The notes under the pieces were generated by a model, which worked only from the letters and a program-made list of their open reading frames with translations, did no database searches and had not been told where the DNA came from. Shown piece after piece: positions 3,452-21,587 of a DNA stretch of 64,000 bases. Each line of letters opens with the position of its first letter. The first letter of the stretch is position 1. A program made the translations under genes and the position numbers. Source of the DNA: Alphaproteobacteria bacterium. GTDB lineage: Bacteria > Pseudomonadota > Alphaproteobacteria > CACIAM-22H2. The stretch is taken from assembly GCA_035457725.1 (NCBI GenBank), contig DATIBC010000041.1:260-64259 (forward strand), read 5' to 3'.

Positions 3452-3835
3452 CCGCCAAGACCAATCGAAGCGCCGCGGTTGCGCGGCGGCGGCGTGGACG
3501 ATCCCAAGCCGCGGGATCGCAAGGCTAGACAATTCGCCCGGCTGACTCAACGTCGCCCCGCGGGTTCGATGGTTGCCGCCACAAGCATGCGCGCGCGGGC
3601 TGTCTGGGATTGCTGCGTGCGACTATGATCGGGCGGGGCGGCGAATCGGGAGGACCACCATGGCGAACATCCAAGGCAGACCCCAGCGCAGCGCCCGACG
3701 CTGTTCGCGCGAAGCGGAGCGCGCTTCGCGCATCGATGTTAGCGTGTCGCCCGCCAATCAAGACGTGAAGCGCGGATGGCGGGCAAACTTCAGGCAACTC
3801 GGCACGATCGGCCAGAAACACGGGAGCACGAACGA

Positions 3836-4135
3836 ATGATTCTCGAAATCGCCCAGATCGAAGTGAAAGCGGGCCTCGAAAAGGAGTTCGAAGCAGGCGT
3901 CGCCAAGGCCGCGCCGGTGTTCGCTCGCGCCAAGGGCTGCCGCGGCATGGAGCTGCAACGCTCGATCGAGAAGCCAAGCCGCTACCGGCTGTTGGTCAAA
4001 TGGGAGACGCTCGAGAACCATACCGTCGATTTTCGCGCCTCCGAAGATTTCAAGGTGTGGCGTGGGCTGGTCGGGCACTGCTTCGCCGGCGCGCCGGAAG
4101 TCGAACACACGTCGCAGGTGGTGCACGGGTTCTGA
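3836..4135 (+). CDS. antibiotic biosynthesis monooxygenase (ABM) domain protein
   Basis: About 100 aa, ferredoxin-like ABM pattern (MILEIAQIEVKAG...F...H). Start trimmed to the internal Met. Confidence 0.5.
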   Translation: MILEIAQIEVKAGLEKEFEAGVAKAAPVFARAKGCRGMELQRSIEKPSRYRLLVKWETLENHTVDFRASEDFKVWRGLVGHCFAGAPEVEHTSQVVHGF

Positions 4136-4642
4136 CAGCCGGCGGGCGAGGGCCGGCCGGCGTGACGCTTCCTGGCACGAGGCGGGCAAAAAAATGGGCC
4201 GCACCTTTTGAGCACGGCCCAAGTTTAGGGAGGAAACGCCCGGAATGCGGCCAGGGAGGCCGGATTCCGACGCGGCATCAGGGATGCCGCAGTGCAATAT
4301 TTGAATGGTGCGACGCAAAAATCAAGCATCAATTTATCGCAGTGCAAAATATTTTATGTGTACGAACGACAATCTGGTACAAGATTGAATTGAAAGAGAT
4401 ATTTTTTGGCTACGGTTATATGAGCGTCCGCGGCTTCGCCGCGATGCGGCGACTCGACGCCCGATGGCCTGGTCCTTGGCGAATCCAATTCTTCGCCTAT
4501 TTATGGCTTAATAACAGAGGCTTAGATCGAATTTCCTGGGCACGAGCATTGGATGATCTATAGTCTTCAATAGCGATGGCCCGATTCGCCGGAACGAGTG
4601 GTTGGCGCGTCGGCCAGTACGGCGGTCAACCAGCGGTGGCCC

Positions 4643-5620
4643 ATGAACGATACGACGCCACACCCGCCTGCCCAGCAACCTGTTTCCGGTCTGGTGACCC
4701 CGCGTTTTTCGGGCATACCGACATTCATGCGCTTGCCATTCGCCAGCGACCCCACGACGGTCGACGTGGCGCTTGTCGGCGTGCCGTGGGACGGCGGGAC
4801 GACCAATCGTCCAGGCGCCCGACATGGCCCGCGTGAGATCCGCAATCAGTCGAGCCTGATCCGCCGCGTCCATCCGACCACGCGCGTGTCGCCGTTCACG
4901 CTTGCCCGCTGCGCCGACCTGGGCGATGCCCCGGTCAACCCGGTCGATCTCCTGGACACGCTGTCGCGCATCGAACAGTTCTTCGCCAAGCTGCACGAAG
5001 CCGGAGCGGCGCCGCTCTCGGCGGGCGGCGATCATCTGGTGACGTTGCCGATCTTTCGCGCGATCGCCGGCAAGCGAAAACTGGGCATGGTGCATTTCGA
5101 CGCCCATTCCGACACCTGGGACCGCTACTTCGGCGATTATCGCTACACGCATGGCACGCCGTTTCGCCGCGCAATCGAGGAAGGACTGCTCGATCCTAGA
5201 CGGACGATCCAGATCGGCATCCGCGGCTCGCTCTACTCGCAAGACGACAACGATTGGGCGCTCGCCCAGGGCATCCGCGTGGTCACGATCGAGGAATATT
5301 TCGCGCTCGGGCCGGAGAAGGTGATCGCCGAGGCGCGGCGCATCGTCGGCGATGCTCCGTCCTACATCAGCTTCGACGTCGATGGCCTCGACCCCGTCTA
5401 CGCGCCAGGCACGGGAACGCCGGAGATCGGCGGTTACTCGACGTTCGATGCCCAGCTCATGGTGCGCGGCTTGCGTGGACTCGACATCGTCGGAGGCGAC
5501 GTGGTCGAAGTTTCGCCGCCGCTCGATCCCAGCGGCAACACCGCGCTGGTCGGCGCGACGATGATGTTCGAAATTCTCTGCGTGCTCGCCGAGGCGATCG
5601 CCCGGCGCAAGCGCCGCTGA
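4643..5620 (+). CDS. agmatinase-family ureohydrolase (arginase superfamily)
   Basis: Mn-binding motifs of arginase/agmatinase (GVPWDGG, HFDAHSDT, SFDVDGLDP, GGY). Exact substrate not assignable (agmatine, guanidinobutyrate or other). Confidence 0.75.
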   Translation: MNDTTPHPPAQQPVSGLVTPRFSGIPTFMRLPFASDPTTVDVALVGVPWDGGTTNRPGARHGPREIRNQSSLIRRVHPTTRVSPFTLARCADLGDAPVNPVDLLDTLSRIEQFFAKLHEAGAAPLSAGGDHLVTLPIFRAIAGKRKLGMVHFDAHSDTWDRYFGDYRYTHGTPFRRAIEEGLLDPRRTIQIGIRGSLYSQDDNDWALAQGIRVVTIEEYFALGPEKVIAEARRIVGDAPSYISFDVDGLDPVYAPGTGTPEIGGYSTFDAQLMVRGLRGLDIVGGDVVEVSPPLDPSGNTALVGATMMFEILCVLAEAIARRKRR

Positions 5621-5631
5621 CCCTCGACGAC

Positions 5632-6774
5632 ATGGACGAAGACGCTTCGCGCGCGCGTGCGTGGTGTCGCGCCGCGCGTGCCGAGGGGATCTGGGTCGCC
5701 GAGCTCGGCGGCCGCTGGATCCTTGCCAACGTGGTCGAGCTCGAGCATGACGTCGCGGCCCTGGCGCCCGACGCCGGCGCCGCGGTGCGAATCGACCTTG
5801 GCGGCGTCGAAGCGCTGGATACGGCCGGAGCTTGGCTGATCTATCGCTTGGCGCGACGGCTGGCCAACGTTCCGCACAAGGTCGAAATTTCCGGCGCCAC
5901 CGACGCCCAGACGGCGCTGCTCGAGCGCATGGCGCCCAAGGAGGGTCGCCGCCCGCTCATGCGGCCCTACAATCCGCTGCGCGACATGCTCGAGCGCGTC
6001 GGCGAGGTGACGATCAACGTCCTCAGCCGCGCGCGCGATCTCGTCTCCTTCTTCGGCCTGACGGCAATCGTCTTCGTCCGCGCGGCCCTGCGGCCGCGGC
6101 GGTTGCGCTTCGTATCGCTCTTGAGCCATCTCGAGCGCGTCGGTCTCAATGCGCTCCCGATCGTCGGATTGCTATCGTTTTTGATCGGGGTCGTCCTCGC
6201 TTATCAGGGGGCCGATCAGCTCCGGCAGTTTGGCGCCGAGATCTATACCGTCAATCTCCTCGGCGTGTCGGTGCTGCGCGAAATCGGCATCTTGATGACC
6301 GCGATCCTCGTTGCCGGCCGTTCGGGCAGCGCGTTCACAGCCGAGATCGGCATGATGAAGGTCAACGAGGAAGTCGCCGCCATGCAGACGATCGGCGTCG
6401 ACCCGATGGAAGTCTTGGTCCTGCCGCGCGTGCTGGCGACGGTGATCGCGCTGCCGCTTCTCTGCTTTTACGCCAATATGATGGCGCTCCTCGGTGGCGC
6501 GATCATGTCCTATTTCGCGCTCGGCATCGGCGTCGAGCAATTTCTCGTCCGGCTCAAGGACGCGATCACCGTGTCGACGCTTTGGGTGGGCATGGTCAAG
6601 GCGCCCTTCTTCGCGTTTCTGATCGGCATGGTCGGCTGCTACGAAGGGCTCAAGGTCGAGGGCAGCGCCGAAAGCGTCGGCCGGCTGACGACCAAGGCGG
6701 TGGTCGAGGCGATTTTCCTGGTCATCGTCGCCGACGCCGGGTTTTCAATCCTTTTTTCGTACCTGGGCATCTGA
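5632..6774 (+). CDS. MlaE-family ABC transporter permease with N-terminal STAS-like domain
   Basis: C-terminal ~260 aa MlaE/Ttg2B permease fold. N-terminal ~120 aa anti-sigma-antagonist-like domain. Start at the Met just after the agmatinase stop. Confidence 0.7.
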   Translation: MDEDASRARAWCRAARAEGIWVAELGGRWILANVVELEHDVAALAPDAGAAVRIDLGGVEALDTAGAWLIYRLARRLANVPHKVEISGATDAQTALLERMAPKEGRRPLMRPYNPLRDMLERVGEVTINVLSRARDLVSFFGLTAIVFVRAALRPRRLRFVSLLSHLERVGLNALPIVGLLSFLIGVVLAYQGADQLRQFGAEIYTVNLLGVSVLREIGILMTAILVAGRSGSAFTAEIGMMKVNEEVAAMQTIGVDPMEVLVLPRVLATVIALPLLCFYANMMALLGGAIMSYFALGIGVEQFLVRLKDAITVSTLWVGMVKAPFFAFLIGMVGCYEGLKVEGSAESVGRLTTKAVVEAIFLVIVADAGFSILFSYLGI

Positions 6775-6777
6775 ACG

Positions 6778-7569
6778 ATGGCCGATGCTGGTCCGAGATC
6801 GCCGATCATCCGCCTCAAGGGAATCGTCACGCGCTTCGGCAGCAACGTGATCCACGACGGCCTCGATCTCGACATCAGGCGCGGCGAAATACTCGCGGTC
6901 GTCGGCGGGTCGGGAACCGGCAAGTCGGTGCTTTTGCGCACCATCATCGGCCTGCGCCAGCCCGATGGCGGCACCATCGAGATTCTCGGACAAGACACCG
7001 CGCGGCTCGACGACCGCGGCCGCGCGGCCCTGCGCAGACGATGGGGCGTGTTGTTCCAAGGCGGCGCGCTCTTCAGCTCGCTAACCGTGGCGCAGAACAT
7101 CCGCGTCCCGTTCAAGGAGCACACCAAGCTGCCGGCCAAGCTGGCGGGCGATCTGATTCGCATCAAGATCCAGATCGTCGGCCTGCCCGCCGAGGCCGGC
7201 GCGAAGTTTCCCTCGGAGCTTTCGGGGGGCATGGTCAAGCGCGCCGGATTGGCCCGCGCGCTGGCGCTCGATCCGGAAATCCTTTTCCTCGACGAGCCGA
7301 CGGCCGGCCTCGATCCGATCGCCGCCTCGGCCTTCGACCAGCTCATCCGCGACCTGCAGCGGAGCCTCGGCCTTACCGTGGTGATGATCACCCACGACCT
7401 CGACACGCTCGCCGCCATCGCCGACCGCATTGCGGTTCTCGTCGATCGCCGTGTTAAAGTCGGTACCATGGACGAGTTGCTGGCCGACCCGCATCCTTGG
7501 ATCCACGATTACTTCGCCGGCCCGCGGGGACGGGCCGCGGCCCGAGCGCACGACGTCGAGGCGCGATAG
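6778..7569 (+). CDS. ABC transporter ATP-binding protein (MlaF-like)
   Basis: Walker A GGSGTGKS, signature LSGGM, Walker B ILFLDEPTAGLDP. Confidence 0.8.
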   Translation: MADAGPRSPIIRLKGIVTRFGSNVIHDGLDLDIRRGEILAVVGGSGTGKSVLLRTIIGLRQPDGGTIEILGQDTARLDDRGRAALRRRWGVLFQGGALFSSLTVAQNIRVPFKEHTKLPAKLAGDLIRIKIQIVGLPAEAGAKFPSELSGGMVKRAGLARALALDPEILFLDEPTAGLDPIAASAFDQLIRDLQRSLGLTVVMITHDLDTLAAIADRIAVLVDRRVKVGTMDELLADPHPWIHDYFAGPRGRAAARAHDVEAR

Positions 7570-7572
7570 GCC

Positions 7573-8568
7573 ATGGAGACGCGCGCCAGCTACATACTCG
7601 TTGGAACATTCGTTCTTTCGCTCATCGCCGGGCTGTTCGCCTTCGTGCTGTGGCTCGCCAAGGTCGAATTGAAGGACGAGCGCGTCTATTACTACATCTA
7701 CTTTCCCGGCTCGGTCAGCGGATTGCAGGTCGGCGCGCCGGTGCAGTTTCGCGGCGTGCCGGTGGGCACGGTCACCAGCATCGACATCGACGCCGAGAAC
7801 GTGGAGCTGATCGAGGTGACGGTGGCGCTGAGGGCGGGCACGCCGGTCAAGACCGATTCCGTCGCATCGCTCCAGGCCCAGGGGATCACCGGCCTGAGCT
7901 TCATCCAGCTCTCCGGCGGAACGCAGGGCGCCGAGCCGCTCACTCCCCGGCCAGGCAAGCGCCGCGCGGTCATACCTTCGACTCCCTCGACGCTCGAGAA
8001 ATTCTTCGAGAGCGCGCCGGACTTGATCGCGCGCATCGGCGAGGTGGCGGTGCGCGTCGCGACACTGCTCAGCGACGAAAATATCCGGCATATCGATTCA
8101 ATCATCGACAACCTCGACCGTTCCTCAGCGGCGCTGGCCGTTTCGATGCTCGAAGTGCCGAGAACCATCGACGGTGCGCAAGCCGCGATCGCCGACGCCC
8201 GCGGCTTGATCAGAGATCTTCGCGGAAGCACCGCGAAGCTCGACGCGCTGATGGCCGATTTGCGAGGCTTAGCGCAACGCGTTGGCGGCAACGTCGATCG
8301 CCTGGGCGCGAGCGGCGATCGAACGCTGAACGAGATCGGCGTCACGGTGCAGTCGTTGCAGCGGACCGCGGCGGAGATTGAAAAACTCGTCGCCGATACC
8401 CGAACGCCGCTGCGCGATTTCTCGCAGACCGGTCTATACGAGCTGAACCAGTTTCTGGCCGAGGCGCGGGTCTTGATCGCCGCCTTGACCCGTATCGCCG
8501 CCAACCTCGAGCGCGATCCGGCGCGCTATCTCTTCGGCGATCAACAGAAAGGCTTCGAAGCCAAATGA
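7573..8568 (+). CDS. MlaD-family MCE-domain substrate-binding protein
   Basis: N-terminal TM followed by an MCE domain (YYYIYFPGSVSGLQVGAPVQFRGVPVG), then long coiled-coil tail. Confidence 0.75.
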   Translation: METRASYILVGTFVLSLIAGLFAFVLWLAKVELKDERVYYYIYFPGSVSGLQVGAPVQFRGVPVGTVTSIDIDAENVELIEVTVALRAGTPVKTDSVASLQAQGITGLSFIQLSGGTQGAEPLTPRPGKRRAVIPSTPSTLEKFFESAPDLIARIGEVAVRVATLLSDENIRHIDSIIDNLDRSSAALAVSMLEVPRTIDGAQAAIADARGLIRDLRGSTAKLDALMADLRGLAQRVGGNVDRLGASGDRTLNEIGVTVQSLQRTAAEIEKLVADTRTPLRDFSQTGLYELNQFLAEARVLIAALTRIAANLERDPARYLFGDQQKGFEAK

Positions 8569-9209
8569 TGTCGCGTCGCCCCGTGCTCAAGCAGGCGCTC
8601 GCCCTGGCGTCGATGACGGCGCTGGCCGGCTGCCAAATCCCCGGCGCCGGCGATCCGCCGCAACTCTTTACGCTAACCCCAAAGAGCGCCTTCGCCGCCG
8701 ATCTTCCGACGGTCGAGTGGCAGCTCATCGTCGAGACGCCTGTCGCCGCCGCGGGCCTCAGCACGAGCCGCATCGCGCTTCAGCGCTCGCCGCTCGAGCT
8801 CGACTATTACGCCCGCGCCAATTGGACGGATACGGCGCCGCTGATGGTGCAAACGCTGCTGATCGAGTCGTTCGAGAACAGCAAGCGCATCGTCGCGGTC
8901 AGCCGCGAATCGACGAATTTGCGCGCCGATTACGTCCTCAAGACCGACTTGCGGGAGTTTCAGGCGCAATACGACGGCGCCGGTCCGCCGCTGGTCCACG
9001 TTCGCCTCAGCGGCAAGTTGGTGCGGCTGCCGGATCGGACGATCATCGCCAGCAAAAGCTCGGAGTTGTCGCTTCGCGCCGCCGGCGGCGACATGCAGAG
9101 CATCGTCGGAGCGTTCGACGAGGCGCTCGGCAAGGTCTTGCGCGAGCACGTCGAATGGACGTTGCGCGCCCCGGCCACGACCCGTCGCCATCAAGCCGCC
9201 TCCGGCTGA
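8565..9209 (+). CDS. ABC-type transport auxiliary lipoprotein (DUF330/PqiC-like)
   Basis: Lipobox LAGC after signal peptide. 4-nt overlap with the preceding MCE gene. Typical fourth gene of Mla/MCE operons. Confidence 0.6.
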   Translation: MMSRRPVLKQALALASMTALAGCQIPGAGDPPQLFTLTPKSAFAADLPTVEWQLIVETPVAAAGLSTSRIALQRSPLELDYYARANWTDTAPLMVQTLLIESFENSKRIVAVSRESTNLRADYVLKTDLREFQAQYDGAGPPLVHVRLSGKLVRLPDRTIIASKSSELSLRAAGGDMQSIVGAFDEALGKVLREHVEWTLRAPATTRRHQAASG

Positions 9210-9214
9210 GCGAT

Positions 9215-10249
9215 TCAATAGAAGCTGTCGAAGTGGATCCGCTCCGCGGGCACGCCGCGGCGGCGCAACATGGCGACGCTTGCCTCGACCATTGGCGGAG
9301 GTCCGGCGACGAAGATCTCCGCGGTCGCAAGGACCGCCCCGCCGGCCCGCTCGACGGCCTCGTGCACCATGCCGCGTGCCCCCGGCCAAATCTCGGGTCC
9401 GATGTCCTCGACATTCGACAAGACGACGCGGTAATCGATCGCGGCCTGCGGGGCGGGATCGAAGCAACGGCCAAGATCGACGATGTCCGCCGGGCGGCGT
9501 CCGCCATAGAACAACGTTGCCATCCTGGCGCTTGGGTCTTGGCGTCGTAGCACCGCGCGGAGAATCGACACCATCGGCGATAGGCCTGAGCCGCCGGCGA
9601 TGCAAAGCACCGGCGCGGCGGTCCCGGGCGCAAGAAACGCGTGCCCATAGGGCGCGTCGAGGACGACCGGCATGCCGACATAGGGCGCCTCAAATAACGC
9701 CCGGCCCGCCAATCCGCCTTGCTTGCGCTTTACGATGAACTGCCAAACCCCCGCGGAATTGGCGAGGTTGGCCATCGAGTATGCGCGCCAGCCCGGGACA
9801 TTGGGCAGCGCCAGCAACGCGTATTGTCCGGGCAGGAATTCGGCGACGCCGCCAGCGTGCAGCTCGAATTCCCAAATATCGTGGGTCAAGACGCGCCAAC
9901 GCTCGAGGCGCGCGGCGCGTCGGACGGGGGCTATCGGCGGCTTGCGTGCAGGCTCGAGGCGGACGGCTATCGTCGCCGGCCCCAGCGGAGTCGCCTGGCA
10001 TCCGAGCATGCGATTGCGTTGCCGGTCGCGTTCGCTCCACGCCGGGGCCTCGCGCCACGCCATGTCGAAAGCGCCATCGCGTATCTCAAAGCGGCAGGTA
10101 CCGCACGAGCCGGTGCCGCACTCGTAAGGAAACGGCAGCCCGGCACGGAGCGCCGCCCGCAGCACCGGCTCGTCGGGCGCGCACGAAAACGTCGGTCCGC
10201 CGGCGATCGCGACCACGAAGCCGCCACCGGGCGGCGGCATCTCATTCAA
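9215..10249 (-). CDS. carAd: ferredoxin-NAD(P)H reductase component of Rieske dioxygenase (CarAd-like; plant-type 2Fe-2S plus FAD/NAD domains)
   Basis: N-terminal C-x4-C-x2-C...C ferredoxin (YECGTGSCGTCRFEI) followed by FNR-type flavin and NAD domains. Last gene of the car-like operon. Confidence 0.7.
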   Translation of the reverse strand: MNEMPPPGGGFVVAIAGGPTFSCAPDEPVLRAALRAGLPFPYECGTGSCGTCRFEIRDGAFDMAWREAPAWSERDRQRNRMLGCQATPLGPATIAVRLEPARKPPIAPVRRAARLERWRVLTHDIWEFELHAGGVAEFLPGQYALLALPNVPGWRAYSMANLANSAGVWQFIVKRKQGGLAGRALFEAPYVGMPVVLDAPYGHAFLAPGTAAPVLCIAGGSGLSPMVSILRAVLRRQDPSARMATLFYGGRRPADIVDLGRCFDPAPQAAIDYRVVLSNVEDIGPEIWPGARGMVHEAVERAGGAVLATAEIFVAGPPPMVEASVAMLRRRGVPAERIHFDSFY

Positions 10250-10988
10250 GGCCGAAGACGCGATCGAGACGCATGGCGATCCGAATGTCTCCGCGCAGCC
10301 GCAGCTTTCCCGTCATCAGCGCGAATTTCGGATTGAGCTGCTTGTCGATGATCTTCTCGAAGTTCTCGCGGCTGACCGTTATGGTGATCGTCGAATCCTT
10401 GTCTTCGTTGCTCACCGAATTCGGTTTCGCGAGGCCGTCGACATAGATGATTCCAACCTCGGGAAAGACGAACTTCACCGTCGCATCGAGTCCCGAATCC
10501 GCTCCCACCGATGTGCGGACTCGTTCGGTCAATTCCTGCAACGTCATATCGCTGTTCCTCCCGGGGCTAGTGCCGTGCTCCGTCGCATGGGATTCGATCG
10601 GCCGCGATGGCGCCCGCGCCGCGCGCGCGATCCACACCTTTCCGTCGCGCACCGTGGCGGCGTAGGTGCGCAGGGCCACGGTGCAAGGCGCCGCCGCCGG
10701 CTCTCCGGTGCGTAGGTTGAACGCGCCCGCGTGCCATGGGCATTCGATGATTTCGCCGTCAAGCGTGCCCTCGCTCAGCGACGCCATGCCATGCGTGCAA
10801 GTATCGTCAACGACGTAAAAGGCGCCGCCGGCGTTGAATACGGCGAGCGCCGGCATGCCAGCCACGACGCATTTGCGCCCCGATCCGGGCGCGATGTCGC
10901 CGGTCGCGCACAAGGCGATCAACTCGGAATCAGTCGCGCAACCGTTGGCGCGGCCTTCGGACGCAGAATGCGATGCAAGCGACTCCAT
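10242..10988 (-). CDS. carAc: Rieske [2Fe-2S] ferredoxin (CarAc-like) continuing in-frame into a C-terminal SCP2 sterol-carrier domain
   Basis: Rieske motifs CTHGMASL...CPWHAGAF. Start ATG overlaps the stop of the upstream hydrolase (ATGA). No stop codon before an SCP2-like ~100 aa segment (internal ATG at ~10547 with a GGGAGGA RBS). Confidence 0.65.
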   Translation of the reverse strand: MESLASHSASEGRANGCATDSELIALCATGDIAPGSGRKCVVAGMPALAVFNAGGAFYVVDDTCTHGMASLSEGTLDGEIIECPWHAGAFNLRTGEPAAAPCTVALRTYAATVRDGKVWIARAARAPSRPIESHATEHGTSPGRNSDMTLQELTERVRTSVGADSGLDATVKFVFPEVGIIYVDGLAKPNSVSNEDKDSTITITVSRENFEKIIDKQLNPKFALMTGKLRLRGDIRIAMRLDRVFGLE

Positions 10989-11812
10989 CAGTCGTGCGCG
11001 TTGCGTATGAAGTTCAAGGTCGCCGACGCGAAGTCGCGCGGGTGCTCGAGCATCGCCCAATGGCCGCAATCGGGAATGAAGTAAGCCCAAGATTTCGGGA
11101 TCAGATCGAGCATCCGCATCGCGTCCGAAAGCGGCACCACCTTGTCTTGTTTGCCGTTGATCACCAACGTCGGCGCCTGGACGCGTCGAATGAAGTCCTC
11201 TTCGTAGTAGAGGCCGCCTTGTTGACGCACCCAGCCCATGATATCGCCATACGCGCGGCGCGCATCGGCATCGAGCGCGTTGGTGAAGCGATAATCCACC
11301 ATCTTGTCGTCGATCTTGAACCGCTCGGTGCACAAGACCCGCATCAGCGCGATCATTCCCTCGCGGGTGAAATCGTAATTGATAAGGGGCTTGAGCGAGG
11401 GCGGTAGATGACGCGTGACCCCAGCGCTGCCCATGAGGACGAGGCGTCCCACGATCTCCGGCCGCGACGACGCGACTCCGATCGAGGTGGCGCCGCCCAT
11501 CGAATTGCCGACCAGCGTCGCCCGACGAAGGCCCAACGCTTCCAAGAAGCCCGCGAGATGCTCGTTTCGCGCTTGCTGCGAATAAACGTACTTCTCCGGG
11601 TCGGGCTTGTCGGTCTTGCCGAAGCCGACCATGTCGACGGCGATGACACGTGCTTCCGCCGCGAGCATGGGAATCGTCTCGACCCAATTCGAGTAACCGT
11701 CCGCGCCGGCGCCGCCGCCGTGAACGAGTACGATGGGATCGCCGCTTCCCTCGTCGACGTAGTGCGTTCGAATACCCGCCACATCGATAAACCTACTTTG
11801 CCACGACCTCAT
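10988..11812 (-). CDS. carC: meta-cleavage compound hydrolase (CarC/BphD/MhpC family alpha/beta hydrolase)
   Basis: HGGG oxyanion motif, GNSMGG nucleophile elbow, C-terminal His. Sits directly downstream of the extradiol dioxygenase genes. Confidence 0.8.
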   Translation of the reverse strand: MRSWQSRFIDVAGIRTHYVDEGSGDPIVLVHGGGAGADGYSNWVETIPMLAAEARVIAVDMVGFGKTDKPDPEKYVYSQQARNEHLAGFLEALGLRRATLVGNSMGGATSIGVASSRPEIVGRLVLMGSAGVTRHLPPSLKPLINYDFTREGMIALMRVLCTERFKIDDKMVDYRFTNALDADARRAYGDIMGWVRQQGGLYYEEDFIRRVQAPTLVINGKQDKVVPLSDAMRMLDLIPKSWAYFIPDCGHWAMLEHPRDFASATLNFIRNAHD

Positions 11813-11867
11813 GAGACCTCCTCGAAAGCTCCCCCGTCACGAAATTCTGCGTAACGCGCAACGATGG

Positions 11868-12677
11868 CTAGGCGGCCAGCGCAATACCCCCTACGCCGGT
11901 GAGCCACTGCGGAATGGGTTCGTAGTAGATCTGTTCGCCTGTCCGTCCAGGCAACGTCGCCGCGGCCATGAGCCAGGTGACGATCTCCATGCCCCCGTTC
12001 CCCGACTGCTCGACGATCTCGCCGGGGCTCAGCGACGTCAGTTCTTCCGCCCGGCCGGCGACGATCTTGTCGATGACCATTCGGTCGAACGTCTCGTTTA
12101 CGCGCCCCATGCCGGGTATGTTGACCCAGTGCGACAGGCCGCCTGTCCCCATGACGACGACGCGCTCGTCGGTGGGACGGTGGCGTTCGATCGTCTCGCG
12201 CAGCACTCCGCCCAGCGCATAGCATCGGCCCGGCCTGGGCAATGGCGTCATGTTGATGTTCACGATCAACGGAAGCACCGGCGTCTTGCCGTCCGGATTG
12301 GCGAACATCAACGGCAACGCGACGCCGTGATCGGGGTCGAGTTCCTCGACTTTAGCCAGATCGAAACCGCGCTCCGCCGCGATCTCCACCAAGCTCTCGC
12401 CCAGCGCCCGCGATCCGCGGAAAGGCCGTCGCGGCACTCCCATCTCGCCGAACGGCGTATATGCGTCGGCGACGCCGACCGTGAACGGCGGCTGCAGGGA
12501 AAGATTTATGTTGTACATATGCTCGCTGCTGATCACCACGATCGCATCGGGGGCGAGCGCACGAACGCGCGCGCCGATCTCCCGCAGCCCCTGGAACGCG
12601 CGCTCGGCGCGCTCCTCGACGCCTTGCGGCGAAAAGAGGATGTGCGAGGTAGCGAACGCGCCTACGACCTTACCCAT
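11868..12677 (-). CDS. carBb: class III extradiol dioxygenase catalytic subunit (LigB family; CarBb-like)
   Basis: LigB-type fold and length (269 aa). Paired with the small LigA-like subunit upstream. Confidence 0.75.
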   Translation of the reverse strand: MGKVVGAFATSHILFSPQGVEERAERAFQGLREIGARVRALAPDAIVVISSEHMYNINLSLQPPFTVGVADAYTPFGEMGVPRRPFRGSRALGESLVEIAAERGFDLAKVEELDPDHGVALPLMFANPDGKTPVLPLIVNINMTPLPRPGRCYALGGVLRETIERHRPTDERVVVMGTGGLSHWVNIPGMGRVNETFDRMVIDKIVAGRAEELTSLSPGEIVEQSGNGGMEIVTWLMAAATLPGRTGEQIYYEPIPQWLTGVGGIALAA

Positions 12678-12678
12678 T

Positions 12679-12954
12679 TCATCGCTCCTCGAGCCGGCGC
12701 GTGAATGCGCTCATGTTGATCAGGTCCGCCATTTGCGGGTTCATCGCCATCATCAGATGAACTTGCAGGATCGGGTGGAGCCCGATCGCCGCGAGCGCGG
12801 CCGGATCGCCCGCCGCAAGCGCCCGGGCTTCGTCGCTCGATAGCCCGTGATCGCGGAAAACCGATTCGGGCTCGCTGCGCAACCGGACGACCAGCGCCGG
12901 GTCGCGGCACAATCGCTGCACCAATCGGTTAGCGTTGCTCGATCGATACTGCAT
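12679..12954 (-). CDS. carBa: extradiol dioxygenase small subunit (LigA-like; CarBa-like)
   Basis: 91 aa, LigA/CarBa-like, immediately upstream of the LigB-type subunit with a 1-nt gap. Confidence 0.65.
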   Translation of the reverse strand: MQYRSSNANRLVQRLCRDPALVVRLRSEPESVFRDHGLSSDEARALAAGDPAALAAIGLHPILQVHLMMAMNPQMADLINMSAFTRRLEER

Positions 12955-13030
12955 GTGGGTCGACCTCCGCCGATCGCGGTGGGATTGGCTGCCGCGGCGT
13001 CAATCGCCGTGGCGCGGGCTGCGCCTTCGT

Positions 13031-14203
13031 CTAGATCGTGTGTTCCGGCTTTTGGATTCCGCGATTGCGTCGGCTGGCGAGCTTGCGCCATTCGACGATC
13101 GCCAGATCCGGCTCATAAAGCCGCTCCTCGACCCAACCGACGTCGCCGGCATAAAATGCCTCTCCCGCTTCGCGCGCCCAAACATCGTCATCGTTAAACC
13201 CGTCGAGCGCTAGCGACGACAGCCGCTCGTTGAACTCCTTGTCGAACGCCTTCTCGGCCTCAGGGCCATCGACACGGCGTCCCAGCGTTTGCAGGTAATA
13301 ATGGCTGCCGGCGTCGCGCGAGACGTACCATTCGAATTGGATCGTGTCTTCCTGCGGCCAGGGATCGACCTTGAGCACGCCGGGCAGCCAGATCGAAATG
13401 TTGTTGGCGACTTTCGTCGCGCCAAAGTGCCCCTCGGCGACCTTTTCATCGCCGAGATAGCTTTCGAACACCGGCATCGACAGGTCGCCCAGGAGATCGT
13501 AGACGCCGCTGCGTCCTTCGCTCTCCTCCACCGTGCGGAACGTCTCGACGCCCTCGGGCGGCGCGAAACCGACCGGAAGCGCTAGGTCGTTGCCTGTGAC
13601 GAGCGGCGATTTCTTGTGGATCCAGATATGTCCGGAATCGAACCCGTTCTCGACGCCAAGCCGCCAGTTGGCGTTGACCTGGCGCACCTTGCCGCGGATC
13701 GCCATGTCGGCGTCGAGAAAATCTGGCGGCACGTCGGTCCAAAGCGGCGGCGCCGTGATATCGCCGACGAAAACGAAGACGATCCCTTTCGCTTCCTCGA
13801 CCGGATAGGTCTTGATCCGATGCTTGCCGATCTGCGTGCTCATCGGGTTGGTCAGGATGCCGATCAGTTCGCCGGTGAGCCAGCTATACGTCCAGCCGTG
13901 GTACCAGCAGGTGATGGTGTCGTTGCGAAAACATTCGAGCTTGGCCGAAAAATTTACCCCGCGATGCAGGCAACGGTCCTTCATCGCGTAGACCTTGCCG
14001 TCGATGCGTTTCAACAACAGGTTCTCTCCAAGCAGGCGCAGCGGCCGTATTTCGCCCTCCGCCACGTCGCGGGAAAACACCGTCGGATACCAGTGATTGC
14101 GAAATCCGAGCTTCGCTTCCACGTAGCCGCGCCACCCTTTGACTCTCTCGAGCACCTTGGGGTCCACCGTGGCGTTTACCGGCGGCGCAAACTGCGTCGA
14201 CAT
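13031..14203 (-). CDS. carAa: Rieske non-heme-iron angular dioxygenase terminal oxygenase (carbazole 1,9a-dioxygenase CarAa-like)
   Basis: Rieske CLHRG...CWYHGW. Many blocks recalled from CarAa (RVKGW..Y..AKLGFRNHWYP, NWRL.VENGFD, SIWLPGVLKV, FEWYV, NDDD.WAREA, WRKLAS). ~390 aa as in CarAa. Start at the internal Met with a GGGAGA RBS; upstream ORF portion rejected. Confidence 0.75.
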   Translation of the reverse strand: MSTQFAPPVNATVDPKVLERVKGWRGYVEAKLGFRNHWYPTVFSRDVAEGEIRPLRLLGENLLLKRIDGKVYAMKDRCLHRGVNFSAKLECFRNDTITCWYHGWTYSWLTGELIGILTNPMSTQIGKHRIKTYPVEEAKGIVFVFVGDITAPPLWTDVPPDFLDADMAIRGKVRQVNANWRLGVENGFDSGHIWIHKKSPLVTGNDLALPVGFAPPEGVETFRTVEESEGRSGVYDLLGDLSMPVFESYLGDEKVAEGHFGATKVANNISIWLPGVLKVDPWPQEDTIQFEWYVSRDAGSHYYLQTLGRRVDGPEAEKAFDKEFNERLSSLALDGFNDDDVWAREAGEAFYAGDVGWVEERLYEPDLAIVEWRKLASRRNRGIQKPEHTI

Positions 14204-14236
14204 TCGCCGTCTCCCACGCTGATTGTTAGCACAGAT

Positions 14237-14256
14237 GACAGACAAAAGTGTCTGAC
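14237..14256. promoter_or_regulatory. inverted repeat GACAGACA-AAAG-TGTCTGAC in the carAa/GntR divergent promoter region (candidate GntR operator)
   Basis: 7/8-bp arms with a 4-bp spacer, 35-55 bp upstream of the carAa start codon. GT...AC core typical of GntR/FadR operators. Confidence 0.4.
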
Positions 14257-14475
14257 GATATTGCCCGAGAGTCAAGATCGATACGGCTCTCCGACCCAAG
14301 CTCGACTTCGGACCCGGTGAGGTCCTTGGATGCCAAATTTTGCGCCCGGCATGGCGTCTTTCACCAAGCTTCCTATGGCCCCCTTGTTGTAATATATTGT
14401 CCTGCAATCCAGCCCACGGCGCGGTAATTGCTCTATCTTCGGATTTATCGCGGCGTAAGATCGCAGCGGGTGACC

Positions 14476-15150
14476 ATGGAAAAGAACAAGACGGGCGGCG
14501 CGAAGACGGTCGTCGAGGCAACCATCGAGGCAATCAAGAGCGGAATATTCGAGGGCCGCTATGCGCCCGGTCAACGCCTCATCGAGGCTGACCTGACGCG
14601 GGAACTAAGCGTGAGTCGCGGTCCGCTGCGCGAGGCGCTAGGCCGGTTGGTGGCCGACGGCTTGGTCGAAATTGAGCCCTATCGTGGGGCAATCGTCGCG
14701 CGGCCGTCGCGCGAGGACGTCGCCAACACGCTGCAACTTCGCGAAGTCCTCGAGGGCCTGGCGGCGCGGCTAGCGGCCGAGCGAATCGAAATTGGCGACA
14801 ATCGCAAACGTCTCGTGGCCGAGCGGGACGCAATCGCCAAGAGCGACGCCGGCCTCGAGGTGGCGACGTTCATGAGCGACAATGAGCGCTTCCACGGGCT
14901 GATACTCAAGCTGTCGGGCAACTCGCAACTGGCCCGTCTGGTATCGCAGATGCAACTGCCGACGCTTCAGACGGCTTTTTTCCGGACGATCGACCAGAAA
15001 GTACGTTCGAATTCGCTCGCCCAGCACCGGGAAATCCTGAACGCGATCCTGGCCGGCGATGGCGGCGCGGCGGAGCGCGCGATGCGGACGCACATCGCGC
15101 GCACCAGCGAACTTGCCAAGCGGCTTCCGGACGCTTTATTCGGAGCGTGA
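14476..15150 (+). CDS. GntR-family (FadR/FCD subfamily) transcriptional regulator, divergent from the car-like operon (CarR-like)
   Basis: N-terminal winged HTH (RLIEADLTRELSVSRGPLREAL), C-terminal FCD domain. Position matches CarR of known car loci. Confidence 0.75.
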   Translation: MEKNKTGGAKTVVEATIEAIKSGIFEGRYAPGQRLIEADLTRELSVSRGPLREALGRLVADGLVEIEPYRGAIVARPSREDVANTLQLREVLEGLAARLAAERIEIGDNRKRLVAERDAIAKSDAGLEVATFMSDNERFHGLILKLSGNSQLARLVSQMQLPTLQTAFFRTIDQKVRSNSLAQHREILNAILAGDGGAAERAMRTHIARTSELAKRLPDALFGA

Positions 15151-15172
15151 GTTCGCGCGGCAGCGCCGAAGG

Positions 15173-16174
15173 TCAAAAGCGAATCAACAAACGACCGATG
15201 ATTCGGTCGCCCTCGGGCCGGTTCTCGACTAGATAGTCCTTCTGGTACTTGAGTTCGACCACGGCGCCGATCGGGTGCTGGTATTGGACCTGCGGGCCGA
15301 TGCCGAGAGCGCGGCCGCGAAATCCGCCCAGAAACGGGACGTCATTCACCTCGTCGTCGCTGAATTGGTGATAGTAGTACCCACCGATGCCGACCAAGAT
15401 CTTGCCCCAGTTGAGCTCCCAGCGGTAACCAAAGGAGTAATCGACGAGTATCGCTTCGCCTGAATCGTAGTTGGTCTCCGGATTTTCGAAGTTGATGTCC
15501 AGCGTGATCTTGCTCGACACCTCGAAGCCGCCGTGAAGCCAAGTGAAGGCATAGGCCGGACTGAAGGTGAAATAACCTTGCCCGATGTTGACAAGGCGAC
15601 TTGCCTCGAACGACGCGGTCGGAAAAGTAACATCGAAGCCGACGGCCTGATGGAAATTCGGCGAGTGCCACGCCAGGAGCTGGGTGATGGTGATATCCCC
15701 TACGCCGGTCTTCGATTGGCGGCCAAACGGCGGCTGGCTAAACGCCGCCGCAAGCCCGGCGGCCACCGGCGGCGGCAGCCCAGGAGGAATCGGCGGCGGT
15801 GGATTCTTGATCGAAACGCGCACCACCGGAACGATTAATTGCGTGAGCCAATCGGCGCCGAGCACCTTGAGCCCCGGGTTATAAAGAAAGCGCGCCGCGT
15901 AGGCCTGCGTCTCTAGCTTGAAATTCGGGAAGAGCGGGTCGCCGCTCGAGTTGTTGAAGCGATCGGCGTCGATGAAAATGAACTCATTGGCTAGATACAG
16001 ACCTTCGGGCGGCAGATTGCCGACGCCGATGCCGTTAAGGCCGTTGGGAAACGGATTGCGTCCGGATTCCGTCGCCATGACTGCGCCGCTTGCCAGAAAC
16101 ATTCCGCCGAGCGCCAAGGCTATCGACGTCCGCCATCCGATGGTCGTTTTCCCACCTGTCGACCCAGCCGCCAT
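15173..16174 (-). CDS. outer-membrane transporter of the meta-pathway phenol-degradation (MetA) family
   Basis: Signal peptide, beta-barrel-like alternating pattern, C-terminal aromatic residue. Pro-rich insert NPPPPIPPGLPPP. Confidence 0.6.
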   Translation of the reverse strand: MAAGSTGGKTTIGWRTSIALALGGMFLASGAVMATESGRNPFPNGLNGIGVGNLPPEGLYLANEFIFIDADRFNNSSGDPLFPNFKLETQAYAARFLYNPGLKVLGADWLTQLIVPVVRVSIKNPPPPIPPGLPPPVAAGLAAAFSQPPFGRQSKTGVGDITITQLLAWHSPNFHQAVGFDVTFPTASFEASRLVNIGQGYFTFSPAYAFTWLHGGFEVSSKITLDINFENPETNYDSGEAILVDYSFGYRWELNWGKILVGIGGYYYHQFSDDEVNDVPFLGGFRGRALGIGPQVQYQHPIGAVVELKYQKDYLVENRPEGDRIIGRLLIRF

Positions 16175-16379: not shown

Positions 16380-16829
16380 ATGGCTGCAAAAACGTTTGCC
16401 CTGGAAGCCGCCGAGACCATCGCCGACACCGCTCTGGCCAAGGGACGTGAATTGCGTTTGGCACCGTTAACGGTGGCGGTGCTCGATGCCGGCGGGGTTC
16501 TTGTCGTGCTCAAGCGCGAGGACGGCTCGAGCCTGCTCCGCCCTGAGATCGCCGTCGGCAAGGCATGGGGTGCGCTGGCGATGGGCGTCGGAACGCGCGC
16601 GATCGCCGCGCGGGCCGCGCAAGCGCCGGCGTTCATTCATGCCGTGACGACGCTCGCCGGCGGACGTTTTGTCCCAGTCCCTGGCGGCGTCCTGATCCGC
16701 TACACGGATGACGAGATCGTCGGCGCAGTCGGGATCAGCGGTGATAGTTCGGACAATGACGAGACCTGCGCGGTCGCCGGAATAGTCGCCGCAGGATTCA
16801 AAGCGGATGCCGGCGGCCCGCCACGATGA
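16380..16829 (+). CDS. GlcG/HbpS-like heme-binding protein (DUF336)
   Basis: ~150 aa with the GlcG signature (AAETIADTALAKG...GVGISGDS.DNDETCAVAGI). Upstream ORF extension rejected. Confidence 0.65.
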   Translation: MAAKTFALEAAETIADTALAKGRELRLAPLTVAVLDAGGVLVVLKREDGSSLLRPEIAVGKAWGALAMGVGTRAIAARAAQAPAFIHAVTTLAGGRFVPVPGGVLIRYTDDEIVGAVGISGDSSDNDETCAVAGIVAAGFKADAGGPPR

Positions 16830-19898: not shown

Positions 19899-21587
19899 TC
19901 AAGCGGCCACGGCGTCGGCGAGAAGCGCGCGCAACGCGGCGGGATCGACATCGCGAGCGACGAAAGCCTCGCCGATCCCGCGCGCCAGGATGAATATGGC
20001 GGCGCCTCCCCGCGCTTTCTTGTCGTGCGCCATCGACGCGATCAGCGAATTGGCGTCCAGTCGGCCCAAATCGGCTCTCGCCAGCGCCGTTGGCAGCCCG
20101 ACCGCCTCGAGATGCCTGCGAACGCGTTCGGCGTCCCCGGTCGCGCACAGCCCTAGCCGCGCTGAAAGCTCGAACGCCAGCGTTATCCCGATCGCCACCG
20201 CCTCGCCATGCAGCAGCGCCTCGCCAAATCCGGTCGCTGCTTCGAGCGCATGGCCAAACGTATGGCCGAGATTGAGCAACGCCCGCCGACCAGCCTCGCG
20301 CTCGTCGGCGGCGACGATCCGCGCCTTGGCGCGGACTGAGCGCGCCACCGCGAAGGACTGCGCCGCCGAATCGCCGGCCAGCACGCGCGATCCGTTGGCT
20401 TCGAGCCAGGCAAAGAAATCGGCGTCGTCGATGAGTCCATACTTGACGATCTCGGCATAGCCAGCGCGAAGCTCGCGCGCAGATAGCGTCTTGAGCGCGT
20501 CGAGGTCGGCGACGACCATTCTCGGCTGGTGAAACGCGCCGACGAGATTCTTGCCATGGCGCGTGTTGATGCCCGTTTTGCCGCCGACCGAACTGTCGAC
20601 CTGGGCGAGCAGCGTCGTCGGTGCCTGGACATAATCGATTCCGCGCAGCACGAGACTCGCGGCGAATCCGGTGAGGTCGCCGACCACTCCGCCGCCGAGC
20701 GCCATCAGCATGGCGCCGCGATCGGGCTTCAAATCGAGGACGCGCTCGACCAGCGACTGGAGGTGAGCGAAGTCCTTGGCGCCCTCGCCCGGCGCCACTT
20801 CGATCAATTGCGCGGCGACGCCGGCGGCATCGAGCCCGAATTTGGCGCGCGGCCATTGCGTCCGCGCGACGTTGACGTCACTGACGACGATGAGCCGTCG
20901 TTCGCGCAGTAGCGGCAGAACGAGTTGGCCTACGCGGTCGAGCAATCCGGCGCCGATATGAACATCGTAACCGCGCGCCCCTAGCTCGACCCGCACTTGC
21001 GTTACGTTCTCGATCCTGGCCTCGCCGGCAAGATAGCGCCGCAGCGCCTCGGCGACGCGCTCGACGGTCGCCTCGGGCGGTCCATCGACACTTTCGACCC
21101 GAATATCGGCCTGCGCATATATGGGATTGCGCTCGGCCATCAATCGCGACAGAACTTCGCGCGGATCGCCCCGCTTCAGCAGCGGTCGGTTGTTTCGCCG
21201 CGCCACGCGACGCAACAGCAAATCGAGATCGGCGTCGAGCCACACCGAAATGCCGCGCGCCTTGATCTTGGCGCGCGTTTCCGGATCGATGAACGCGCCG
21301 CCGCCGGTCGAAAGCACCTGCGTTGGCGCGTCGAGGAGCCGTTGAACGATCTTTCGCTCGCCCTCGCGGAATGCTTGTTCGCCGAGCGTGTCGAAAATTT
21401 CTTCGACCGACCGGCCGGCCGCCGCCTCGATCTCGTGATCGGCGTCGGTGAATGGCACTCCCAGTCGCTGTGCCAGTCGCCGGCCGATCGCGCTCTTGCC
21501 GGCTCCCATCAGCCCGACGAAGACGATGGTGCGCGGAACGGCGGGCGCGACCGGATCGGCCGGCGTATCCGAATTAGATCGCGCCAT
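19899..21587 (-). CDS. aroKB: bifunctional shikimate kinase / 3-dehydroquinate synthase (AroK-AroB in a single ORF)
   Basis: N-terminal P-loop shikimate kinase (GLMGAGKSAIG). After ~190 aa the full AroB sequence follows with no intervening stop. Confidence 0.75.
   Translation of the reverse strand: MARSNSDTPADPVAPAVPRTIVFVGLMGAGKSAIGRRLAQRLGVPFTDADHEIEAAAGRSVEEIFDTLGEQAFREGERKIVQRLLDAPTQVLSTGGGAFIDPETRAKIKARGISVWLDADLDLLLRRVARRNNRPLLKRGDPREVLSRLMAERNPIYAQADIRVESVDGPPEATVERVAEALRRYLAGEARIENVTQVRVELGARGYDVHIGAGLLDRVGQLVLPLLRERRLIVVSDVNVARTQWPRAKFGLDAAGVAAQLIEVAPGEGAKDFAHLQSLVERVLDLKPDRGAMLMALGGGVVGDLTGFAASLVLRGIDYVQAPTTLLAQVDSSVGGKTGINTRHGKNLVGAFHQPRMVVADLDALKTLSARELRAGYAEIVKYGLIDDADFFAWLEANGSRVLAGDSAAQSFAVARSVRAKARIVAADEREAGRRALLNLGHTFGHALEAATGFGEALLHGEAVAIGITLAFELSARLGLCATGDAERVRRHLEAVGLPTALARADLGRLDANSLIASMAHDKKARGGAAIFILARGIGEAFVARDVDPAALRALLADAVAA

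Follow-up and report, generated by a model that had tools for sequence, protein, structure and literature searches.

A car-type operon with a fused ferredoxin gene

The 64,000-nucleotide stretch of contig DATIBC010000041.1 (assembly GCA_035457725.1, labelled Alphaproteobacteria bacterium) analysed here, hereafter the window, contains a compact row of minus-strand genes at 9215-14203 that corresponds to the carbazole-degradation (car) operons of Pseudomonas resinovorans CA10 and Janthinobacterium J3. The row reads carAa, carBa, carBb, carC, carAc, an SCP2 domain and carAd, with the ferredoxin gene carAc and the SCP2 domain (the counterpart of ORF7 of the CA10 plasmid pCAR1) joined in one open reading frame (ORF). 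A regulator gene lies divergently beside carAa and is followed by a gene for an outer-membrane protein (Table 1). Sequence comparison indicates that this is very probably a chromosomal upper-pathway car operon of the Pseudomonas/Janthinobacterium organisation, encoding a class III carbazole 1,9a-dioxygenase (CARDO) and belonging to a lineage of uncultured soil Alpha- and Betaproteobacteria. In gene content and order it is a known operon type in a new lineage, with one architectural variant, the CarAc-ORF7/SCP2 fusion.

At 60-71% G+C the window yields raw ORF lists crowded with spurious frames, and the real genes were picked by third-position G+C bias together with translations and Pfam matches. 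The same gene set, with the same lengths, was obtained by an independent gene caller on soil-metagenome contigs with identical CarBb, the exact CarBb protein being present on 23 such contigs. The cluster ends at 9215 and 16174 coincide exactly with the carAd stop and the start of the MetA-family gene. Within it the junctions are tight: the TGA stop of carC shares one base with the ATG of the carAc-SCP2 ORF, and carAd starts two bases past the SCP2 stop. Judged by their translations, all seven functional modules are intact, with their catalytic residues, and are arranged for coupled translation. An earlier note on this DNA had listed these genes and a single copy of carAa; by Pfam and translations every one of them is there, with strand and position as that note implied, and each car gene occurs once in the window.

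Table 1. Genes and features of the car locus, in coordinates of the window.
Feature	Position	Strand	Description
carAa	13031-14203	-	390 aa; terminal oxygenase, carbazole-1,9a-dioxygenase type; Pfam Rieske and PF11723
carBa	12679-12954	-	91 aa; small subunit of two-subunit extradiol dioxygenase; CA10 CarBa homologue
carBb	11868-12677	-	269 aa; catalytic LigB-type (class III) extradiol dioxygenase subunit; Pfam LigB
carC	10988-11812	-	274 aa; meta-cleavage-product hydrolase, 2-hydroxy-6-oxo-6-(2'-aminophenyl)hexa-2,4-dienoate (HOADA) type; Pfam alpha/beta hydrolase
carAc-SCP2 fusion ORF	10242-10988	-	248 aa; Pfam Rieske and SCP2
Rieske ferredoxin domain of fusion ORF	10620-10919	-	aa 24-123; Pfam E 4e-16
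Variable linker of fusion ORF	10548-10619	-	aa 124-147; ~25 residues, Ala/Pro/Ser/Thr/Arg-rich
SCP2 domain of fusion ORF	10242-10547	-	aa 148-248; Pfam 39 bits, cut-off 21.3
carAd	9215-10240	-	341 aa; FNR-type ferredoxin reductase, N-terminal plant-type [2Fe-2S]; Pfam Fer2, FAD_binding_6, NAD_binding_1
Control region, carAa/regulator gap	14204-14475	.	272 bp, divergent; read from sequence
GntR/FCD-family regulator, CarR-like	14476-15150	+	224 aa; divergent from carAa; Pfam GntR and FCD
MetA-family (Phenol_MetA_deg, PF13557) outer-membrane protein	15173-16174	-	333 aa; Pfam E 5e-57
HbpS-like/GlcG-like (PF03928)	16380-16829	+	~149 aa; Pfam E 1e-31; possible accessory gene, membership uncertain

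The ferredoxin-SCP2 fusion

From the ATG at 10988 the reading frame runs through the Rieske domain and a linker into the SCP2 domain with no intervening stop codon, so that carAc and the small ORF, given as separate genes in the earlier note, form a single frame of 248 codons. The Rieske part has CarAc (1VCK) as its best match in the Protein Data Bank (PDB; E 2e-32) and is 52.0% identical to CA10 CarAc, in agreement with its previous reading as a Rieske ferredoxin. The SCP2 part (PF02036) matches PDB SCP2 chains at 1e-4 and is 61.2% identical to pCAR1 ORF7, which carries the RefSeq name SCP2 sterol-binding domain-containing protein; it is the operon product most conserved with CA10.

In pCAR1 carAc and ORF7 likewise lie in one frame, but with one TAG and 11 codons between them, and a single base error could therefore mimic a fusion; a lost stop or frameshift introduced by sequencing or assembly would leave two genes in the real genome, as in pCAR1. 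Two database proteins with both domains (P0007 and P0008) do look frameshifted. Against such an artefact, contigs from four independent soil-metagenome samples all gave the identical 248-aa ORF (ENA ERZ1761205 'JX_farmland' and Logan SRR31020873, SRR25158325 and SRR31020823). The frame is also open in two related loci, L001, whose CarAa is 94% identical, and L002, from an Acetobacteraceae metagenome-assembled genome (MAG), where CarAa identity is 66%. A word-indexed search of 5.8 billion proteins returned eight with both Pfam domains. Six of these (P0001-P0006) are clean fusions at 64-92% identity, with conservation in both domains and a linker that differs in sequence and, by whole codons, in length; P0007 and P0008 were set aside as fusions, having garbled segments typical of frameshifted short contigs. 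With these sequences in hand, the artefact explanation appears effectively refuted.

At 12 more distant loci a stop codon and a short spacer separate carAc from SCP2. An exhaustive phmmer search of 1.84 billion cluster representatives gave one full-length representative only (P0001, 504 bits; the next scored 143), and this single match, one 50%-identity cluster, argues that the fusion arose once. The other scanned proteins with two matching stretches have either two Rieske or two SCP2 domains in tandem, and none was an independent ferredoxin-SCP2 fusion. As judged from these searches and alignments, the fusion is real, rare and of single origin, and is maintained across a clade diverged to about 64% identity.

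The fused genes still have a Shine-Dalgarno-like motif, GGGAGGA or GAGAGGA, 7-8 nt ahead of the internal ATG of the SCP2 part, and free SCP2 may therefore be translated as well. In an AlphaFold2 model the Rieske domain is well defined (predicted local distance difference test score, pLDDT, 84-94) and the linker falls below 50; the SCP2 part, at 30-69, is unreliable because the alignment holds only nine sequences. Searches of open-access literature turned up no paper describing a ferredoxin-SCP2 fusion or giving ORF7 a function.

The oxygenase and its companion enzymes

CarAa matches the Pfam Rieske family (9e-17) and PF11723, 'homotrimeric ring hydroxylase' (E 3e-82). When all PDB chain sequences were searched, its best match was CarAa of J3/CA10 (E 4e-153, 513 bits), with CarAa of KA1 at 2e-146 (492 bits) and of IC177 at 2e-116 (393 bits). 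By BLASTP it is 58.5% identical to CA10 CarAa and 60.1% identical to CarAa of Acinetobacter johnsonii IC001. PF11723 also takes in 2-oxoquinoline 8-monooxygenase (OxoO), and that enzyme is the next relative in the PDB (E 2e-84, 287 bits), which leaves room for the proposal that the oxygenase belongs to the phthalate, quinolinone or demethylase branch of alpha-only Rieske oxygenases and is not an angular dioxygenase. We consider this very improbable: CarAa proteins in the PDB score 390-517 bits, phthalate-family, NdmA/B and DdmC proteins score no more than 56 bits (about 1e-13 or worse), and the operon context is car and not oxo. The protein is thus closer to characterised CarAa than to any other Rieske oxygenase in the PDB, as the earlier note had supposed, and its best matches are not phthalate-family or other non-angular enzymes.

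An alignment of 57 CarAa homologues was used to check individual residues. The Rieske ligands C69/H71/C90/H93 and the 2-His-1-carboxylate iron ligands H183/H187/D333 are kept. Pocket positions G178, I184, A259, I262, L270, V272, Q282, E284, F329 and N330 are as in J3/CA10, the exceptions being F275W and L202V; W275 is the commonest residue among the relatives and occurs also in IC001. These positions are the ones we take to line the pocket in the J3 structures, three of them cross-checked by differences among J3 entries 4NB8-4NBH, which are presumably I262V, F275W and Q282 mutants of J3 CarAa. The top PDB match is the engineered F275W mutant 4NBC because CarAa here naturally has W275. A beta-subunit gene was found neither in the operon nor elsewhere in the 64 kb, which fits an alpha-only (alpha3) oxygenase.

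The remaining enzymes agree with the earlier identification of a two-subunit LigAB-type dioxygenase, a HOADA hydrolase and an FNR-type reductase. CarBa matched no Pfam family; it is 38.6% identical to CA10 CarBa (BLASTP, E 5e-22), and its gene keeps its position between carAa and carBb in at least 20 loci. CarBb matches LigB at 5e-47 and is 48.3% identical to CA10 CarBb, and its translation contains the motifs ATSH(12), GTGGLSHW and GNGGMEIV, which we take to be LigB-type residues. CarC has J3 CarC, a HOADA hydrolase, as its best PDB match (1J1I, E 1e-96) and is 52.0% identical to CA10 CarC; its GNSMGG nucleophile motif and CGHW histidine align with 1J1I. The three domains of CarAd (Table 1) accompany a best PDB match to CarAd 7C3A (E 1e-67) and 39.9% identity to CA10 CarAd. 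In NCBIfam there is no CarAa, CarC or ORF7 equivalog, and no curated cut-off was reached.

Phylogeny and conservation of the operon

The order carAa-Ba-Bb-C-Ac-SCP2(-Ad) is conserved in 14 related loci. A neighbour-joining tree groups the window with L001, L002 and L003 in one clade whose sister consists of soil Alpha- and Betaproteobacterial MAG loci (L004-L012, L060 and L006); both clades stand apart from the group of CA10, IC001 and L058 and from the KA1-like group. This previously uncharacterised CarAa lineage is distinct from those of the CA10/J3, KA1 and IC177 types.

Genes of the lower pathway are lacking in the window. Homologue searches of the 64 kb and Pfam scans of about 55 further ORFs revealed neither a CarD, CarE or CarF homologue nor an alpha or beta subunit of a second ring-hydroxylating oxygenase, bearing out the absence of antABC and carDFE from this stretch that had been noted before; lower-pathway genes must lie elsewhere in the genome. 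We note that a carD-like hydratase gene follows carAd in L058 (15005-15772) and L060 (14970-15737), and that in L010 (13796-16327) and L048 (13815-16337) a carD-like hydratase gene is followed by the genes for a two-subunit Rieske oxygenase pair, a possible anthranilate dioxygenase. Since relatives have such carD extensions, the lower-pathway absence seen here is lineage-specific.

A possible role for ORF7/SCP2

ORF7 has figured in car operons since 1997 with no function assigned to it, and a 2023 review (PMC10992316) still describes the CA10 fragment as seven degradative genes and one ORF of unknown function. Several features of its conservation are informative. Compared with other soil-MAG loci, SCP2 shows 63-71% identity, CarAa 61-64%, CarAc 47-57% and CarAd 41-45%, and SCP2 directly follows a Rieske-type carAc in 15 of the 16 loci that have it. 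Two Burkholderiaceae MAGs, L006 and L007 (the latter by tblastn only), carry the carAa-carAc-SCP2 trio with CarAa 64% identical. In L006 (8898-14930) the places of GntR, CarBaBb and CarC are taken by an AraC-family regulator, an extradiol dioxygenase of BphC type (type I) and a distant hydrolase, which makes a hybrid pathway in which the SCP2 gene is kept with the rest of the trio. Since SCP2 stays with carAa-carAc when the ring-cleavage genes are swapped, its gene is, on this comparative evidence, part of the oxygenase module and not of the ring-cleavage module. Conservation, position and fusion together indicate a physical partnership of SCP2 with the ferredoxin and oxygenase.

What SCP2 might do in such a partnership is suggested by two further lines of comparison. 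The representative search also returned P0136 (584 aa), an MFS_1 transporter whose C-terminal SCP2 domain shares 45% identity with the one here; in it, too, SCP2 of this kind is tied to a membrane protein handling small molecules, a fusion that fits the idea of a carrier. The SCP2 proteins UbiJ and UbiT have been described as carriers presenting hydrophobic intermediates to hydroxylases (PMC6747719, PMC9499169). They resemble ORF7 in being small SCP2 domains, proposed substrate holders, beside oxygenases or hydroxylases that act on very hydrophobic aromatics; they differ in belonging to ubiquinone biosynthesis and show no detectable specific kinship with ORF7 beyond the Pfam family, so that the likeness is an analogy of mechanism and not evidence. 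By this analogy we propose a carrier role for a hydrophobic substrate or product; in this reading, which we prefer though it is more speculative, the flexibly tethered SCP2 domain would bind the poorly soluble substrate, or the diol product, and hand it over at the oxygenase with its docked ferredoxin. It is possible, though rather doubtful, that ORF7-type SCP2 proteins are a genuine fourth component of class III CARDO-type dioxygenases, a ligand carrier near the ferredoxin docking site that would couple substrate delivery or diol removal to electron delivery.

Three points weigh against such a role. Sato et al. (1997) and Nam et al. (2002) reportedly reconstituted CARDO from CarAa, CarAc and CarAd alone; ORF7 would therefore not be essential in vitro, and any role it has would be auxiliary. 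The SCP2 part of the AlphaFold2 model is of low confidence, and no cavity can be read from it. The fusion, by its distribution, is one Rosetta-stone event and not several.

The pathway itself is textbook, and the operon adds mainly to what is known of car distribution and diversity: in uncultured soil Alphaproteobacteria a complete Pseudomonas-type car operon exists as a chromosomal trait that is stable and free of mobile-element signatures. The main point of interest is the fusion, which ties ORF7 to the ferredoxin and oxygenase. The function of ORF7 becomes directly testable through its highest conservation with CA10, its travel with carAa-carAc despite swapped ring-cleavage genes, and its fusion to the ferredoxin. 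Were ORF7 a true component, the natural CarAc-SCP2 fusion would be both an evolutionary footprint of the partnership and a ready-made construct for demonstrating it; should it prove to be a substrate carrier, it could improve engineered dioxin- or carbazole-degrading systems.

Regulator, control region and probable uptake channel

About 17 related loci, KA1-like Sphingomonas loci among them, have the same divergent GntR-carAa arrangement that the earlier note described, with identities of 33-93%, and CarR of KA1 and XLDN2-5 is a GntR-family car regulator (PMC2848856). In the gap between carAa and the regulator gene lies the palindrome CAGACA-N4-TGTCTG (14239-14254), a candidate operator; on the carAa strand, a TTGACT hexamer lies 15 nt upstream of its start. 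In L001 it reads CGGACA-N4-TGTCCG, with both arms changed and the pairing kept. A second candidate operator, the motif ATTG-N5-CAAT at 14396-14408, resembles palindromes upstream of carAa in other loci; TTGT..ACAA-type palindromes occur there in L018, L019, L025, L030 and L058. We infer that the regulator binds the candidate palindromic operator.

The MetA-family protein, whose match spans 239 of the 242 PF13557 profile positions, is a probable uptake channel for a hydrophobic substrate. Its gene lies beside the regulator gene, as reported previously, and is no peculiarity of this locus: PF13557 genes sit directly upstream of carAa in both pIC001B (the plasmid of A. johnsonii IC001) and pCAR1, with 22-23% identity to the protein here, and a MetA-family gene is beside the cluster in L001 (90%) and L003 (52%). 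We also note that a 588-codon frame of pCAR1 (NC_004444.1; L078), at 2695-4458(+) directly upstream of the first carAa, is missing from the PLSDB gene table; its N-terminal part is Rieske alpha-subunit-like and probably a truncated antA copy, and its C-terminal 290 aa are MetA-family, 61.6% identical to the pIC001B 'transporter' upstream of carAa.

The HbpS/GlcG-like gene beyond the MetA-family gene has homologues 1.4-4.3 kb from carAa in L001 (790-1236), L003 (3746-4102), where it comes directly after the GntR gene, and L006 (14334-14930). None was found at the remaining loci, so its association with carAa is weak.

Predicted pathway and substrate

The steps of the pathway can be proposed because the characterised orthologues act in this way. 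The MetA-family channel would admit a hydrophobic substrate of tricyclic or biaryl type, either carbazole or one of its close N- or O-heterocyclic analogues. Electrons would pass from NAD(P)H to CarAd (flavin adenine dinucleotide and plant-type 2Fe-2S cluster), then to the Rieske centre of CarAc, to that of CarAa and finally to the mononuclear iron. CarAa would carry out angular dioxygenation (C1, C9a), giving 2'-aminobiphenyl-2,3-diol; CarBaBb would open this diol by meta cleavage, and CarC would hydrolyse the cleavage product to anthranilate and 2-hydroxypenta-2,4-dienoate. The GntR/FCD protein would repress at the palindromic operator until a pathway metabolite builds up.

How far carbazole itself is the substrate deserves caution. 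At 58% identity to CA10 CarAa, substrate preference is not readable from sequence; the host comes from farmland soil without known carbazole exposure; and with no anthranilate or meta-pathway genes in the 64 kb, growth on carbazole is unproven. The same enzymology could instead serve another soil heteroaromatic or biaryl compound, with carbazole a laboratory surrogate; examples are agrochemicals, diaryl ethers, carbazole or indole alkaloids from plants or microbes, and lignin or humic fragments that resemble dibenzofuran. The lineage is widespread in MAGs from ordinary soil and water (Acetobacteraceae, Stellaceae, Xanthobacteraceae, Bradyrhizobium and Burkholderiales), the genotype recurs in farmland metagenomes, the window is without ant or meta-pathway genes, and the tree sets the lineage apart from both characterised groups. 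Broad substrate ranges are known for CARDO enzymes (review PMC10992316), and thiabendazole degradation by a Sphingomonas has been linked to a car-type dioxygenase (bioRxiv 10.1101/2020.03.30.015693). Soil ecology, the breadth of CARDO and the thiabendazole precedent thus leave room for another heterocycle, and we hold that alternative to be a real but minor prospect. Several observations speak for a carbazole-like substrate: the examined pocket residues equal those of CA10/J3 CarAa save W275 and V202, and W275 is shared with IC001, reportedly a carbazole degrader; the CarC and CarBaBb orthologues are of the aminobiphenyl type; and the close relatives L010 and L048 continue with carD and the possible anthranilate dioxygenase. 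As read from the alignment, the conserved pocket favours carbazole-like compounds.

Genomic setting and host

The horizontal acquisition considered in the earlier note finds no compositional support: G+C at third codon positions is 0.77-0.83 in the car genes, matching the flanks, and there is no sign of recent transfer. No tRNA gene was found in the window and no insertion sequence (IS) element or transposase among the scanned ORFs. On these grounds the cluster looks like a long-resident chromosomal trait. A megablast of the whole cluster against PLSDB plasmids gave no match, ruling out a known plasmid cluster. Elsewhere the window contains ordinary chromosomal genes (Mla-like ABC system, bolA, aroK/aroB, malate synthase, accA, rpmB, cobS/cobT, fumarate-reductase-like and gnd).

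The earlier assignment to an alphaproteobacterial host agrees with the nearest genome, L001, a soil MAG labelled Alphaproteobacteria that shares the hbpS-like, ankyrin and bolA flanks in addition to having a CarAa 94% identical to the one here. A match to Rfam RF00519 (suhB/mmgR, 'Makes More Granules Regulator' small RNA; 49.8 bits, above the gathering score) lies at 4181-4258(-), between an ABM-domain gene and an arginase-family gene. This RNA family is known from Alphaproteobacteria, and it supports the class of the host.

Other features of the window were recorded in passing. A four-gene Mla/Mce-like ATP-binding cassette (ABC) system at 5254-9209(+), comprising a STAS-MlaE fusion, an ATPase, MlaD and an ABC_trans_aux lipoprotein, is convergent with carAd and ends 6 bp from its stop. 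It was considered as a car partner and rejected, being without car linkage in the locus of any other species; it is probably a chance neighbour. A 562-aa ORF at 19899-21587(-) has shikimate kinase and 3-dehydroquinate synthase domains, an apparent aroK-aroB fusion. The most G+C-rich part of the window (71%) contains an ORF of 599 aa, at 21921-23720(+), that is rich in Ala, Pro and Arg and matches no Pfam family; its N terminus has a hydrophobic stretch, perhaps a signal sequence. The strong AT skew at 50-51.5 kb falls on the minus-strand genes of two membrane proteins, TauE and an Sdh cytochrome subunit, and these genes are its likely cause.

Comparison with known car systems

The operon most resembles that of CA10 (pCAR1) and J3, with which it shares, as first proposed in the earlier note, the gene order carAa-Ba-Bb-C-Ac-ORF7-Ad. 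The seven products are the same, and so is the class III CARDO electron-transfer chain, in which a Rieske ferredoxin works with an FNR-type reductase that has a plant-type 2Fe-2S domain; ORF7/SCP2 lies between carAc and carAd, and a MetA-family gene sits beside carAa. The differences are that identity to CA10 is only 38.6-61.2%, and that here carAa is single (duplicated in CA10/J3), carAc and ORF7 are fused, and no carD or meta-pathway genes follow carAd. The operon is also chromosomal and without IS elements or transposons, in contrast to the location on a plasmid or Tn4676 (PMC10992316).

The pIC001B cluster of A. johnsonii IC001 likewise has a MetA-family gene, carAa-Ba-Bb-C-Ac-SCP2-Ad, a single carAa and W275. 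It differs in identity (32-60%), in its separate ferredoxin and SCP2, in its location on a small plasmid and in having no GntR gene listed in the stretch examined, for which the PLSDB gene table is incomplete.

The KA1-type car-I clusters of Sphingomonas and Novosphingobium (carR carAaBaBbCAc, class IIA) share the divergent GntR-family carR beside carAaBaBbC. Their CarAa is about as distant as that of J3: KA1 scores 492 bits where J3 scores 513, and identity to the KA1-like locus L020 is about 56%. The KA1 type has a putidaredoxin-type ferredoxin and a separately encoded reductase (PMC10992316), and no SCP2 gene was seen in the KA1-like loci L019 and L020, whereas here the Rieske ferredoxin, SCP2 and FNR-type reductase are all in the operon. 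In the described alphaproteobacterial car clusters (KA1-type, Kordiimonas OC9, Erythrobacter KY5 and Thalassococcus S3) the electron-transfer components are not those of the Pseudomonas type (PMC10992316); unlike them, the lineage in the window retains the Pseudomonas-type electron-transfer set.

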